A stretch of DNA of 64,000 bases, from the NCBI GenBank assembly GCA_029261715.1, contig JAJDAT010000016.1, forward strand, positions 301,885 through 365,884. Reading direction: 5' to 3'. Of this stretch, positions 8,343-12,670 are shown in pieces (position 1 is the stretch's first letter; each line of letters starts with the position of its first letter). This DNA is from Nitrospinia bacterium. GTDB lineage: Bacteria; Nitrospinota; Nitrospinia; Nitrospinales; JAJDAT01. The notes beneath the pieces were generated by a model. That model searched no databases. It was given only the letters and a program-made list of their open reading frames with translations, and was not told the DNA's origin. A program made the translations under genes and the position numbers.

Positions 8343-9005
8343 CTACTTGAGTTCTTTATAAACCTTAAGAATGGAAATTAAAATTAGGATTGGGGACACT
8401 AATGAATAAAGAAGATAGAGCGGCTTTACAAAAGAAAACAAGGTGGCCAGCGAAACGGTAGTAACAACCATGCTGGTGAATCCAAAGTAAAACTTCTTTG
8501 AAAGGGCGTATTGAGGGTTTTTATTTAACGCTTCTGAAGACTGCTTAAGAGTCCAAGCTCTAGCGGACGTCAAAAACCCAACCAAAATAATTCCTACGGC
8601 CCCAGTTAATCCCAAAACAAAAAAATCTTCATCCATTTTGGAATAACCGATTACAACTCCAACGTGTACGACAGCGTAACAAACAGAGTCTAAAACACAA
8701 TCCATCCATGCTCCGAACTCACTGCTCATTTTTTTTGCTCGAGACAAATCGCCGTCCACTAAATCCAGCACAAAGGAAGCCTGAAGAAAAAGTACTCCAA
8801 TTAAAAAAGAGTTTGAAGTTCCAAGAGAGTATGAAAAACCCGATATAACGGCTAATAAAAAAGATACAAGAGTTACTTGGTTAGGCGTAGCGCGAGTTTC
8901 CGCAAGTACGGATACAATAGGCCATGAAAAAAGATTCCTATAGGAATAAATAATAATATCGTCTTTTCCTTTAGCGCACGCTTCTTTGACTTGTTTGTAC
9001 TTCAC
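8343..9005 (-). CDS. CDP-alcohol phosphatidyltransferase family protein (small, about 6 TM helices)
   Basis: The family signature D-x2-DG-x2-(A/S)R-x8-G-x3-D-x3-D is present as DLVDGDLSRAKKMSSEFGAWMDCVLD. The rest of the protein is hydrophobic. Confidence 0.8.
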   Translation of the reverse strand: MKYKQVKEACAKGKDDIIIYSYRNLFSWPIVSVLAETRATPNQVTLVSFLLAVISGFSYSLGTSNSFLIGVLFLQASFVLDLVDGDLSRAKKMSSEFGAWMDCVLDSVCYAVVHVGVVIGYSKMDEDFFVLGLTGAVGIILVGFLTSARAWTLKQSSEALNKNPQYALSKKFYFGFTSMVVTTVSLATLFSFVKPLYLLYSLVSPILILISILKVYKELK

Positions 9006-9057
9006 CGTTCTAAATCTCTTTCAATCAGGGGTTAAATTAATTTTTTCGTATTTTACT

Positions 9058-10197
9058 TCAGTAGATATTGGTCAAAATTTGACTGATATCTTTATAACTC
9101 AATTCAACCGGATTGTTTTTCATTCTATCCGGATTGACACTCTCCTGGACGATGGTTTCAAGATCGCTTTCCTTCAAATCCAAATCTCTCAATCTGATTG
9201 GGAGCCCAATAGACTGCATTAGTTTTGGCATATCTTTAACAAAAGATTCTAAAGAATCGGAATCAAACGCTTCCACAATTTGCTGAATTTTTTGCGGGAT
9301 CGCTTGGTTATTGAATTGAATAACCTCTTTTAAAGTAATGCTAACAGCTAGTCCATGAGGAATATCAAAATGAATTGTCATGGGGTAGGAAATTGAGTGG
9401 CATGCCGCTGTTTTAGTATTATTAAAAGCAAGGCCTGCAAATAAACTGGCCAGCGACATATTGGTGCGAGCTTCAAGATTATCCGGTTCGTTGTATGCTG
9501 TAGTTATGTTTTTTCTAATCAATCGTATGGCGTGTAAAGCAAAAGCGTCTGAGATGGGTTGCGAACTCTTTGACCAACAAGACTCAATAGCATGAGTCAT
9601 GGCGTCTAGGCCGGTAACTGCGGTAGTTTGAGGCGGCATATGAACTGTTAACTGTGGGTCAATGATCGCATAATCGGGGAACATCCAGGGATGGCTTAAA
9701 GAAAATTTCTTTTTCTGCTCCATATCCCATAGGGTTGCCCAACAAGTCACTTCACTAGCAGTTCCAGAAGTCGTGGGAATTGCAATAAACGGAAGGGGCT
9801 TATTCTCCAAAGATTTTTTTCCCGAAAGGTAATCCTCTAACGGTTCATGGTTCGTTGCCATTGCGGCTAGAATCTTCCCAGCATCCAAGACACTCCCACC
9901 TCCTAAGCTGATTACCAACTCAGCCTCCGAAGCTTTCAAGAACTGGATCGCCTGTTGAAGATCGTCGACAGTCGGGTTGGGCTTTATCTGGTCAAAAATG
10001 TACAAACTCTTGTCGTAAAGCATCCGTTTACAAACATCGACATACCCGAAACGACGCATCGATGAAAGACCGGTAACCAACAATATTTTTTTAGGAATGT
10101 TTAATTCGAGGACGTATTTTTTAAGAGATTCAAACGCATGAACCCCAAAGACAATTTTGGTAGGGCTTAGGTACTTCCAAGTTTCATCAAGCCTCAT
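9058..10197 (-). CDS. Iron-containing (group III) alcohol dehydrogenase; candidate phosphonoacetaldehyde-reductase-type enzyme
   Basis: GGGSVLDAGK nucleotide-binding motif, DAMTHAIE, and CHSISYPMTIHFDIPHGLA metal-binding His cluster. It overlaps the upstream ORF by 4 nt (10194-10197). Confidence 0.85.
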   Translation of the reverse strand: MRLDETWKYLSPTKIVFGVHAFESLKKYVLELNIPKKILLVTGLSSMRRFGYVDVCKRMLYDKSLYIFDQIKPNPTVDDLQQAIQFLKASEAELVISLGGGSVLDAGKILAAMATNHEPLEDYLSGKKSLENKPLPFIAIPTTSGTASEVTCWATLWDMEQKKKFSLSHPWMFPDYAIIDPQLTVHMPPQTTAVTGLDAMTHAIESCWSKSSQPISDAFALHAIRLIRKNITTAYNEPDNLEARTNMSLASLFAGLAFNNTKTAACHSISYPMTIHFDIPHGLAVSITLKEVIQFNNQAIPQKIQQIVEAFDSDSLESFVKDMPKLMQSIGLPIRLRDLDLKESDLETIVQESVNPDRMKNNPVELSYKDISQILTNIY

Positions 10198-11130: not shown

Positions 11131-11826
11131 TCAATAATACTCTTCTTGGTCATTAATAATCCGGGATGCATTGTCGGCAGATATAAGATTCAATTCTTGA
11201 CGCGCGTCTCCAGAAGCCAAAGACTGGCCAAATGTGATGGCTAAAATTCTTCCTAAATTAGCTGGATCGGGCGACCAGAAACCGTGAGGCACAAAACCTG
11301 GTATTAACCAGGAATCACCCTCTTGAAACTCTTCATAATGCGTTTCGCCTTCTCCAATCCAAACAAAACCTACAGGTCCTCCATGTAACACTTGAGTGTA
11401 TTGATGAAAAAAATGACCCCGGTTTAAAACAACATCTTCTTTCTCAGTCAAATGGAGTAATAGTTCTACTGGCTTAAAGTTCGGTAAGGTCGAAGACATG
11501 GCTCGACACCAATAGGTATATTGTAGTCTTTCAGCTCGAAACTGATCCATTTTAACGGCTTCTGAGTTCCTTAGAATGATCACGCCACGTTCTCTGTCAT
11601 CATCCATTGGCAGCAAATCACGAACGCTAACATGAAATTCTTTAGCCAGTTTTTCTAGCTCTTCCCATGTAGGTTTCTGATAACCCTTTTCAAGCTCGGA
11701 CAATCTATCCCGCGCAATACCAGTATTTTGAGACACCATTGCGTGTGTATATTTAATCTCATTCCGCCAAGCATGAATCAGGGACCCATAACTTAAATAA
11801 GGTGGTGTCGCAGTTTTTGTCTCCAT
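11131..11826 (-). CDS. XRE-type HTH domain fused to a C-terminal cupin (HppE-like architecture); either an enzyme or a regulator
   Basis: The N-terminal helix-turn-helix is MVSQNTGIARDRLSELEKGYQKPTWEELEKLAKEFHVSVRDLL. The C-terminal cupin is NRGHFFHQ...GDSWLIPGFVPHGFW. Putative metal ligands are H138, Q142 and H181. Confidence 0.75.
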   Translation of the reverse strand: METKTATPPYLSYGSLIHAWRNEIKYTHAMVSQNTGIARDRLSELEKGYQKPTWEELEKLAKEFHVSVRDLLPMDDDRERGVIILRNSEAVKMDQFRAERLQYTYWCRAMSSTLPNFKPVELLLHLTEKEDVVLNRGHFFHQYTQVLHGGPVGFVWIGEGETHYEEFQEGDSWLIPGFVPHGFWSPDPANLGRILAITFGQSLASGDARQELNLISADNASRIINDQEEYY

Positions 11827-11896
11827 AGAAGCCTTCTCAACTTAATTAAGATTATGCAAAAAATATTCTATTGGCCTAAAGTAAAACCTTTTACAC

Positions 11897-12670
11897 TCAT
11901 AATATCATATCTTTAAAAGATTTTTTGGCGTTATTAAAATCCTCTTGAGTGTCTAATTCTTTCCACCCATTCTGAATTTTTACACAGTGAACGGGAATTG
12001 AGTTGTCTACCATCTCCTGAAATAAATCCGTTAAATAAGCTTTTTTCAAACTAGGAGCTTGTTGAAAAGGACGATCTGCATACGTTATCTTACTTTGCTC
12101 ATAAGACTTTTTAAATAAGTCGGAGCCACGTGCCGTTAGCTTTAACATCCCAATAAATTCACCTGGCGCATCTTCTTTCTTTAAAGATCTGACATTCTTT
12201 CCAATTTCTTGCACAAACCCTTTTTCATCGTAAAAAGCCGACTCGGCTTCGGAAATCGGGTGAAGCTTGCGGCCAACATAATTAGCCTTCCAATTTTCAT
12301 CCACAACAACCGAGACATCCTCCTTAGAGGCTAAAAGCTTCTCAACAACAGATGTATTAAAAATGATATCGCAATACAGAATAACAACATCGCCGTGAAT
12401 CTCTTCTTTCGCATAAAAAAGAGACTCTAGAATATTGTTGTTCTCATAATCTGGGTTCATAAAAAATTGAACCCCTGGAAGTTTCAACTTATCCGCCTGG
12501 TAACCTCGGATGACAAAAATATCCTGAACTCCCGCAGCCTTCAAACAATCAATTTGAATATTGATTAGAGGCTTACCGTTTAAGGGAAGTAAACACTTCG
12601 GTTTGTCATCGGTTAACTCCCCCATTCTATTCCCCATACCTGCCGCTATTATAATTGCTTTTGAAGCCAA
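11897..12670 (-). CDS. Nucleotidyltransferase, LicC/PntC-like cytidylyltransferase family
   Basis: AIIIAAGMGNRMG...KCLLPLNGKPLI is the N-terminal NTP-transferase signature. 257 aa. TTG start preceded by an AAGGTGG Shine-Dalgarno sequence. Confidence 0.8.
   Translation of the reverse strand: MASKAIIIAAGMGNRMGELTDDKPKCLLPLNGKPLINIQIDCLKAAGVQDIFVIRGYQADKLKLPGVQFFMNPDYENNNILESLFYAKEEIHGDVVILYCDIIFNTSVVEKLLASKEDVSVVVDENWKANYVGRKLHPISEAESAFYDEKGFVQEIGKNVRSLKKEDAPGEFIGMLKLTARGSDLFKKSYEQSKITYADRPFQQAPSLKKAYLTDLFQEMVDNSIPVHCVKIQNGWKELDTQEDFNNAKKSFKDMIL

Follow-up and report, generated by a model that had tools for sequence, protein, structure and literature searches.

A probably acquired five-gene operon of a Nitrospinales bacterium as a candidate phosphonate branch with a single-module, MPnS-like cupin

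INTRODUCTION

What could an operon contribute to a cell when all of its recognizable gene families have members in phosphonate pathways and no phosphoenolpyruvate (PEP) mutase gene stands beside it? This question is raised by positions 8343 to 12670 of a 64,000-nucleotide stretch of contig JAJDAT010000016.1 (assembly GCA_029261715.1, positions 301,885 to 365,884), here called the window. It comes from an uncultured member of the Nitrospinales with a large, low-GC genome, whose 5.33-Mb assembly was obtained from a biofilm metagenome (96.9% complete, 38.7% GC). An earlier note, made from the sequence alone, had suggested that the five genes activate a small (phosphono)alcohol and install it as a membrane-lipid or solute head group. 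Methylphosphonate is a proposed precursor of methane in oxic waters, and its known synthase, MPnS, is a two-module enzyme of few lineages. Here, we report that one protein of the operon is related to a single MPnS module. We consider it probable, at roughly 0.65, that the pathway as a whole is an acquired phosphonate branch that feeds on a host precursor and leads to methylphosphonate or a close alternative.

RESULTS

Layout and integrity of the operon

The operon consists of five co-directional open reading frames (ORFs) on the minus strand of window 8343-12670, each at the coordinates at which the earlier note had placed it. In order of transcription, they are as follows.

11897-12670, minus strand: LicC/PntC-type nucleotidyltransferase, probably a cytidylyltransferase (NTP_transf_3; 257 aa, TTG start), the first gene transcribed
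11131-11826, minus strand: helix-turn-helix (HTH) plus cupin protein, a predicted single-module Fe(II) oxygenase of the HEPD/MPnS/HppE family (231 aa)
10194-11045, minus strand: orphan ORF, predicted to encode a soluble all-helical protein (283 aa)
9058-10197, minus strand: predicted PhpC-type group III iron-dependent alcohol dehydrogenase (ADH; Fe-ADH, 379 aa)
8343-9005, minus strand: predicted minimal membrane enzyme of the CDP-alcohol phosphatidyltransferase family (CDP-OH_P_transf; 220 aa, GTG start)

The ORF coordinates confirmed the short gaps (70, 85 and 52 nt) and the single 4-nt overlap, which lies between orphan and ADH. The motifs quoted in the earlier note, AAGMGNRMG...KCLLPL, GGGSVLDAGK and DGDLSRAKKMSSEFGAWMDCVLD, were all found in the operon proteins. 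Searches with Pfam and NCBIfam profiles upheld four of the five families, and the orphan gave no match in either.

Window positions 5500-14500 were spanned by one contig in each of three per-run assemblies at 100% identity; these assemblies are from the same study as the source assembly and possibly from the source sample itself. Since three contigs span it without a difference, the locus is not an assembly chimera. The DNA of the operon was present in four DNA runs of one biofilm-metagenome study, and no RNA dataset was among the runs listed as carrying it. A scan for consensus promoters gave one site in front of the operon.

12802-12830, minus strand: promoter-like site TTGACC-17-TAACAT, about 130 nt 5' of the first gene

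This site at 12830-12802 is weak evidence, because consensus sites were not enriched over shuffled sequence (24 observed versus 18.7 +/- 4.5). Further upstream, a strong terminator-like hairpin (13391-13358) closes a TetR gene; matches of the terminator scan were likewise no commoner than in shuffles.

The cupin resembles one module of MPnS

Compared with solved structures by phmmer, the cupin was closest to MPnS (6b9s, E = 1.3e-39), followed by SaHEPD (6b9r, 4.3e-24) and, at a distance, HppE (about 3e-8); PhpD (3G7D) was not matched at E <= 1. The earlier description of the protein as HppE-sized is thus right for its size, but its sequence is much nearer to MPnS and HEPD (1e-39 and 4e-24) than to HppE (3e-8). 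Both modules of MPnS aligned to one and the same span of the query. Pfam detected the HTH alone (HTH_3, residues 17-71). In the AlphaFold2 (AF2) model (pLDDT 73), five helices are followed by a beta-barrel, and the best Foldseek matches of this model were HppE, MPnS and HEPD at E of about 1e-14, with HppE first. Judged by its sequence, the cupin is one module of the HEPD/MPnS/HppE family.

We then compared the active-site positions. In the printed alignment, H138, Q142 and H181 of the cupin correspond to the MPnS triad H148/Q152/H190, and K25, R97, Y105 and N135 correspond to K28, R102, Y110 and N145, which bind 2-hydroxyethylphosphonate (2-HEP) in MPnS. All seven, together with I175, are invariant across 22 family members. 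Methylphosphonate synthesis is stated to require the 2-His-1-Gln triad and two residues adjacent to the glutamine, Phe and Ile (PMC11978286). The cupin has both, since F154 and I175 align to F162 and I184 of MPnS. When the N-terminal modules of 118 database representatives were aligned to the profile of the half-size family to which the cupin belongs, the five columns split cleanly into H-Q-F-I-H and H-Q-Y-G-H, the published patterns of MPnS and SaHEPD, which validates the mapping of the columns. H-Q-F-I-H is the pattern of the cupin and its closest relatives. Within the half-size family, F154 occurs in the clade of the window cupin, and most members carry Tyr there, giving an H-Q-Y-I-H hybrid.

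The substrate of the cupin is likely to be 2-HEP, and we put the odds that its product is methylphosphonate at about even. The foremost alternative is that it acts like HEPD, cleaving 2-HEP to hydroxymethylphosphonate (HMP) and formate, or performs another oxidation, so that the head group would be HMP or a derivative. This would fit the Tyr that most half-size members share with SaHEPD at the MPnS Phe position, the grouping of the half-size family with an uncharacterized 447-aa protein outside the canonical MPnS clade, and the identity of only about 30% between the cupin and MPnS. However, the window cupin has both MPnS markers, F154 and I175, and the Ile is invariant in the half-size family, whereas every full-length module of the Y type has Gly at that position. 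We therefore regard a HEPD-like reaction as unlikely and retain methylphosphonate as the favored product.

A family of half-size cupins

A search of 5.8 billion proteins returned 165 relatives of the cupin, 230 to 243 aa long and 61 to 87% identical. Nearly all are metagenomic, and those with a name are called "XRE family transcriptional regulator" or hypothetical. To judge from the titles of metagenome-assembled genomes (MAGs), the family occurs in Omnitrophota, Planctomycetia, Verrucomicrobiota, Gammaproteobacteria, Actinomycetota and Acidobacteriota. In a library clustered at 50% identity, the entire half-size family falls into one representative. The next relative outside it is the two-module 447-aa protein (41% identity), the canonical two-module proteins being about 30% identical. 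In a FastTree tree of N-terminal modules, which is unrooted and was read without regard to support values, the half-size family and the 447-aa protein form a clade of their own outside the canonical MPnS-type and SaHEPD-type clades and near other single-module lineages. A limited literature search, which is no proof that none exists, gave no earlier description of a single-module relative of MPnS or HEPD.

Among the other representatives, P0248, P0300, P0314 and P0317 are divergent single-module relatives of 204 to 259 aa that lack the first metal-binding His and the substrate-binding residues. This group may be non-catalytic, consisting for example of true regulators or of detached C-terminal-type modules.

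The enzymes encoded around the cupin

The nucleotidyltransferase belongs to PF12804 (E = 2e-18, 67 bits in Pfam) and has the N-terminal G-x-G-x-R nucleotide loop. Its best matches among solved structures were LicC (1jyk, 1.7e-16) and PntC (6pd1, 2.6e-7, over its full length, residues 3-250), in agreement with the LicC/PntC type proposed in the earlier note. Moreover, it is a paralogue, with 29% identity over the full length, of the NTP domain that is fused to the PEP mutase (PepM) of the host, and it shares 48% identity with the NTP transferase from a cluster linked to pepM. By homology we assign it to the LicC/PntC type, with CTP as the probable nucleotide.

For the ADH, the best NCBIfam family was TIGR03405 (Phn_Fe-ADH, 287.6 bits), and the best solved match was 6jko/6jkp, a sulfoacetaldehyde reductase that has served as the reference structure for PhpC (PMC13576164). 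The alignment to 6jko places the metal ligands at D198, H202, H267 and H281. In the residue-by-residue comparison, Y271 of the ADH stands where sulfoacetaldehyde reductase has Phe; this Tyr is strictly conserved in PhpC, where it contacts the phosphonate (PMC13576164). K164, T263 and R358, which are invariant in six orthologues, lie at a constant offset from Lys157, Thr256 and Arg349 of PhpC. The ADH is also 39% identical to the ADH of a pepM-ppd cluster. The group III assignment made from the GGGSVLDAGK motif can thus be narrowed to a PhpC-type signature that includes Tyr271.

The last enzyme matches PF01066 (51.5 bits versus a cut-off of 22 in Pfam) and has six hydrophobic segments. Its motif DxxDGxxSRx8GxxxDxxxD is intact (DLVDGDLSR-x8-GAWMDCVLD) and has Ser in place of Ala relative to D(x)2DG(x)2AR(x)8G(x)3D(x)3D, so that the label of minimal CDP-alcohol phosphatidyltransferase holds. 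The best solved matches were AF2299 (4o6m, 1.2e-13) and IPCT/DIPPS (4mnd). Every NCBIfam equivalog score was far below its cut-off; against NF041135, the model of the bifunctional IPCT/DIPPS fusion, the two separate genes of the operon reached 57.3 and 49.5 bits versus 580.

This transferase might also run in the direction of PgsA or PIP synthase, taking CDP-diacylglycerol as donor and the hydroxyl of 2-HEP or HMP as acceptor to form a phosphatidyl-hydroxyalkylphosphonate, while the NTP transferase serves elsewhere. Its best families, archaetidylinositol-phosphate, PIP and DIPP synthases, indeed use a phosphorylated alcohol as acceptor, but their scores are far under the cut-offs (62 versus 180 and 57 versus 580). 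Moreover, the NTP transferase is PntC-like and accompanies the cupin in every locus surveyed, for which CMP activation of a phosphonate is the best explanation, and methylphosphonate, if it is the product, offers no hydroxyl as acceptor. We hold this direction to be improbable and prefer transfer from a CMP-activated phosphonate.

Gene neighborhoods link the cupin to phosphonate synthesis

We surveyed by tblastn 18 loci carrying a half-size cupin. The pair of NTP transferase and cupin was present in all of them, and in 16 the NTP transferase directly precedes the cupin. PepM comes after the cupin in eight loci, and an Omnitrophota contig (L010/L014) adds a PepM fragment detected by Pfam, so that the cupin adjoins PEP mutase in about nine independent MAG loci. 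Of the 18 loci, 12 have a PhpC-like ADH, 4 a CDP-OH transferase and 5 a TagF-like Glyphos_transf. A groundwater contig carries, in this order, HTH-NTP transferase, cupin, PepM-NTP fusion, phosphonopyruvate decarboxylase (Ppd), Fe-ADH, NUDIX, cytidylate kinase and CDP-OH-like membrane protein; an Omnitrophota MAG has sulfatase, NTP transferase, cupin and PepM in succession. The immediate vicinity of pepM, ppd and Fe-ADH in many MAGs is decisive for a role of the cupin homologues in phosphonate metabolism.

The order NTP transferase, cupin, orphan and Fe-ADH recurs in five other independent loci, namely, a Tara Oceans contig, contigs of two near relatives and two further metagenome contigs. The recurrence of this four-gene order and of the NTP transferase-cupin pair in independent loci indicates that the arrangement is not due to chance. 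In the subclade of the window, the orphan stands exactly where PepM and Ppd stand in related clusters. The downstream transferase varies among the orphan-bearing loci, being a CDP-OH transferase (window and Tara), a TagF-like protein or a sulfatase-family protein.

In one pepM-linked cluster (L008, 14730-16865), genes for a NUDIX hydrolase and a cytidylate kinase directly follow the Fe-ADH and precede that of a divergent membrane protein, CDP-OH-like but missed by Pfam; this suggests recycling of CMP or hydrolysis of a CMP-phosphonate.

A route with no carbon-phosphorus (C-P) chemistry, in which the operon makes an IPCT/DIPPS-like solute or a phospho-alcohol, the HTH-cupin is an XRE regulator and the ADH is a generic alcohol/aldehyde reductase, could draw on the weak matches of both transferases to the bifunctional IPCT/DIPPS model, on the annotation of the cupin as an XRE regulator in several sources and on the detection of the HTH alone by Pfam. 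Yet the cut-off of that model is 580 bits, and these matches reach only 49 and 57. The cupin keeps all metal and substrate positions of MPnS, which argues against a plain regulator; about nine independent MAG loci have it adjoining PEP mutase (tblastn shows eight of them and Pfam the ninth); and the ADH has the PhpC-specific Tyr. Such a route is thus very improbable. A role of the operon in phosphonate biosynthesis or installation, which the cupin residues, the pepM-linked neighborhoods, the PhpC-type Tyr and the pepM gene of the host all support, is in our judgment highly probable.

The host has an upstream phosphonate pathway

The genome contains one PEP mutase above the cut-off (355 bits versus 319.55), a 575-aa PepM-NTP_transf_3 fusion on contig 5; none is encoded in the window, as the earlier note had observed. 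The fusion gene (C5:73108-73968; L006 9287-11014, minus strand) stands alone among the housekeeping genes proS, rseP, lolA, purN, rimP, nusA and infB. In the host and 30 relatives, such fusions measure about 575 to 623 aa, and PepM scored above the cut-off in 28 of the 31 genomes of the order, Nitrospina gracilis among them. Phosphonate synthesis thus seems to belong to the core traits of this nitrite-oxidizing order, with genes that are dispersed rather than clustered. On contigs other than that of the operon, the host also encodes a split, Ppd-like decarboxylase of two subunits dependent on thiamine pyrophosphate and an AepZ/PhnW-type aminotransferase for 2-aminoethylphosphonate (AEP), which scored 360.5 bits against a cut-off of 360.8. 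PhnJ was not found in the host genome and no PhnX (phosphonatase) was above the cut-off, which argues against catabolism.

A catabolic or salvage operon in which the PhpC-type enzyme oxidizes environmental 2-HEP to phosphonoacetaldehyde (PnAA) has a precedent in the PhpC homologues described in 2026 as HEP dehydrogenases of degradative clusters (PMC13576164), but is hardly credible given a 97%-complete genome with no phosphonatase above the cut-off and no PhnJ, neighbors that are activating and transferring enzymes and not hydrolases or transporters, and pepM and ppd in related loci.

The operon was probably inserted into a conserved neighborhood

Two genomes of the same genus (G001 and G004) have the flanking genes, 78 to 97% identical at the protein level and collinear, directly abutting, so that a MinD-like ATPase is followed by a 106-aa ORF, TetR and the CCA enzyme. 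Nucleotide homology to these genomes ends at about window position 6842 and restarts at about 12827, which gives the borders of the insertion.

6843-12826: insertion of about 6 kb comprising the operon and a questin-oxidase-like gene, absent from same-genus genomes
6941-8173, minus strand: questin-oxidase-like gene (PF14027) inside the insertion, with a promoter-like site of its own at 8303-8275

A search of 60 relatives, among them four of the same genus, did not detect the cupin. In a near relative whose PepM (86% identical) and cupin (87% identical) lie on one 184-kb contig, the core of four genes is set among other neighbors, and the CDP-OH transferase is missing. Neither target-site repeats nor mobility genes were seen at the insertion borders in the junction alignment, and base composition was uninformative (40.4% GC in the island versus 38.7% in the genome). 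We conclude that the operon was most likely acquired horizontally; on this view, pepM is missing beside it because the operon is an acquired add-on to an ancestral pathway of the host. The questin-oxidase-like gene was missing from all related phosphonate loci examined, and a third congener (G003) carries it alone and elsewhere; it is probably a passenger outside the pathway.

The right border of the 6-kb insertion is marked by a GC-rich hairpin (ACCGGCGGC...GCCGCCGGT, window 12850-12890), which lies 3' of the 106-aa ORF, is also conserved in congeners without the operon and probably acts as a bidirectional terminator. The insertion site adjoins window 3544-5802 (plus strand), which encodes a protein of 752 aa that Pfam assigns to no family. 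Among congeners, this protein is 83% identical over its first 117 or so residues and 60 to 68% identical over residues 288-752, and the middle is unaligned; by these alignments the gene appears to be fast-evolving or mosaic.

The orphan is a conserved soluble protein

The 283-aa orphan has 29 homologues, all in the same gene order; 26 of them are 256 to 284 aa long, and most align over 94 to 100% of the query. An alternative gene call starts it at Met42 (242 aa). Since homologues conserve the first 41 residues, we prefer the longer form. The single sequence had no Pfam or NCBIfam match, all 27 members searched had no Pfam match, and the PDB gave none by sequence or by profile. The AF2 model is all-helical and confident (pLDDT 89.7, pTM 0.90), and no hydrophobic segment was found. 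Comparisons of this fold were equally negative: Foldseek against the PDB gave a best E of 1.1; a wide VIA-align search gave a best Z of 7.6 over 75 residues, a helical hairpin within the noise for helical proteins; a shape search of the ESM Atlas gave TM <= 0.33 by query; and an Atlas search by features returned nothing usable. The invariant residues are acidic, Arg/Lys, Tyr and Trp, with no His. A predicted complex with the cupin and the ADH, in which the orphan was the partner, scored 0.02 against a mark of 0.32, a value that weighs neither for nor against an interaction. We propose that the orphan is a soluble accessory protein specific to the pepM-less version of the module.

Other genes of the window

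Window 19303-20673 (plus strand) encodes a 456-aa protein with an N-terminal TIR domain, possibly of a defense or NADase type, flanked by an iron/cobalamin-type ABC importer on one side and a cluster for cobalamin salvage on the other. The latter (20920-24425, plus strand) concerns the lower ligand and salvage and encodes a CobQ-like amidotransferase, CobS and a CobU fused to a nitroreductase-family (BluB-like) domain.

DISCUSSION

The genes present, the conserved residues, the genomic context, the insertion and an upstream pathway in the host were observed directly; from these observations taken together, we propose the following route. The PepM-cytidylyltransferase fusion of the host would convert PEP to phosphonopyruvate, and its split decarboxylase, of probable identity, would form PnAA for AEP synthesis. 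The PhpC-type ADH of the operon would divert PnAA to 2-HEP. The cupin, probably a homo-oligomer in which Lys25 is supplied in trans, would convert 2-HEP and O2 most likely to methylphosphonate and CO2 or, alternatively, to HMP and formate. The LicC/PntC-type enzyme would then form a CMP-phosphonate from CTP, and the six-helix CDP-alcohol transferase would pass the phosphonyl group to a membrane-associated alcohol, e.g., diacylglycerol or ceramide, giving a phosphonate-ester head group. Every step is drawn from homology and context, the product of the cupin and the identity of the acceptor being the weakest. The phosphonate reading of the earlier note is supported, since the genome search for PEP mutase, the neighborhoods of the cupin homologues, the comparison of the cytidylyltransferase and the catalytic residues of the cupin all came out in its favor. 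The lipid destination is no more than plausible; sister loci combine this four-gene core with TagF-like or sulfatase-family transferases where the window has the CDP-alcohol transferase. We rate a lipid as the final acceptor at slightly less than an even chance.

Several points weigh against this route. The cupin is a single module of 231 aa, while both characterized 2-HEP-cleaving enzymes have two, and Tyr at position 154 in most family members, as a Y/I hybrid, means that product specificity cannot be read safely. The ADH stays below the TIGR03405 cut-off (287.6 versus 423.7), and the split decarboxylase scores about equally as phosphonopyruvate and sulfopyruvate decarboxylase, with neither subunit above the cut-off. 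Inositol phosphates are the acceptors in the nearest characterized relatives of the CDP-OH transferase, and the TagF-like or sulfatase-like transferases of sister loci imply that the core module is not lipid specific. Finally, the proposed pathway leaves the orphan without an explanation.

If the route is right, it has consequences beyond this genome. A conserved single-module relative that has all the catalytic markers but passes for a transcription factor in annotations would add to the known candidates for methylphosphonate production, and surveys that use full-length MPnS models or high identity thresholds would undercount them. Groundwater, biofilm and marine bacteria (Omnitrophota, Planctomycetia, Verrucomicrobiota and Nitrospinales) would then hold an overlooked source of methylphosphonate, and a lipid ester formed via CMP-methylphosphonate would represent a hitherto undescribed class of lipids. 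In that case the orphan, whose fold has no match, would be a novel enzyme of the pathway, standing where PepM and Ppd stand in the ancestral cluster. The boldest combination, in which the 230- to 243-aa "XRE regulators" are true single-module methylphosphonate synthases or catalyze a new 2-HEP cleavage, the product is esterified to lipid and the orphan is a new pathway enzyme, seems doubtful to us. The locus also shows that phosphonate pathways can be modular, and since a plug-in module that lacks pepM can tap an ancestral AEP pathway, mining of pepM neighborhoods would miss such branches. Of real interest are the half-size MPnS-like family, whose single-module form offers a handle on the origin of the two-module HEPD and MPnS enzymes, and the orphan, whose conservation and confident unmatched fold make it a well-defined target for function discovery.

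How does the operon compare with known systems? MPnS of Nitrosopumilus maritimus (PDB 6B9S/6B9T) is the best solved sequence relative of the cupin and has the same HTH plus cupin module, and the 2-His-1-Gln positions and the second-sphere pair Phe/Ile are kept (markers according to PMC11978286). The pathway of the MPnS cluster runs through PepM, Ppd, Fe-ADH and cupin to nucleotidyltransferase and transferases (PMC9381506), and the window operon obeys the same pathway logic. Unlike MPnS, however, the cupin has one module (231 aa) instead of two (457 aa), is about 30% identical and belongs to a separate clade; the operon lacks pepM and ppd and has a CDP-alcohol transferase and the orphan; and the known methylphosphonate was reported on exopolysaccharide, not on lipid. 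HEPD (SaHEPD, 6B9R; PhpD, 3G7D) shares the fold and the substrate-binding positions, and SaHEPD is the second-best solved match, but HEPD has two modules, and the SaHEPD type has Tyr/Gly where the cupin has Phe/Ile. HppE, the fosfomycin epoxidase (1ZZ6, 5U55), is alike in its single-module architecture and size and is the top Foldseek match. It differs in its weak sequence similarity (E = 3e-8) and in the Glu, not Gln, that HppE-like representatives have in the ligand column, and the window operon has no methyltransferase able to make 2-hydroxypropylphosphonate.

In Pnt pathways, a PF12804 enzyme, PntC, cytidylylates a phosphonate, one PntC often being fused to PepM, and a transferase follows (PMC6697681). 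The "Burkholderiales_CDP-OH" clusters of Group 1 phosphonolipids, which are still uncharacterized, have a CDP-OH-type transferase (PMC8942020). Cytidylyl activation by a PF12804 enzyme and phospholipid-type transferases are common to these clusters and the window operon. The known clusters lead to AEP or 1-hydroxy-AEP by way of an aminotransferase and an alpha-ketoglutarate oxygenase and include pepM and ppd, whereas the branch in the window would run via PhpC and an MPnS-like cupin, with pepM and ppd elsewhere in the genome. The synthesis of di-myo-inositol phosphate by IPCT/DIPPS (4MND), like AF2299 (4O6M), provides the same two-step logic, formation of a CDP-alcohol by a nucleotidyltransferase and its transfer to an alcohol by a small CDP-OH transferase; the genes of the window differ in being separate and not fused, in scoring far below the equivalog cut-offs and in their phosphonate, not inositol, context. 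The operon is thus set apart from known clusters by its single-module oxygenase, the lack of pepM and ppd, the conserved orphan and the interchangeable transferases of its kind.

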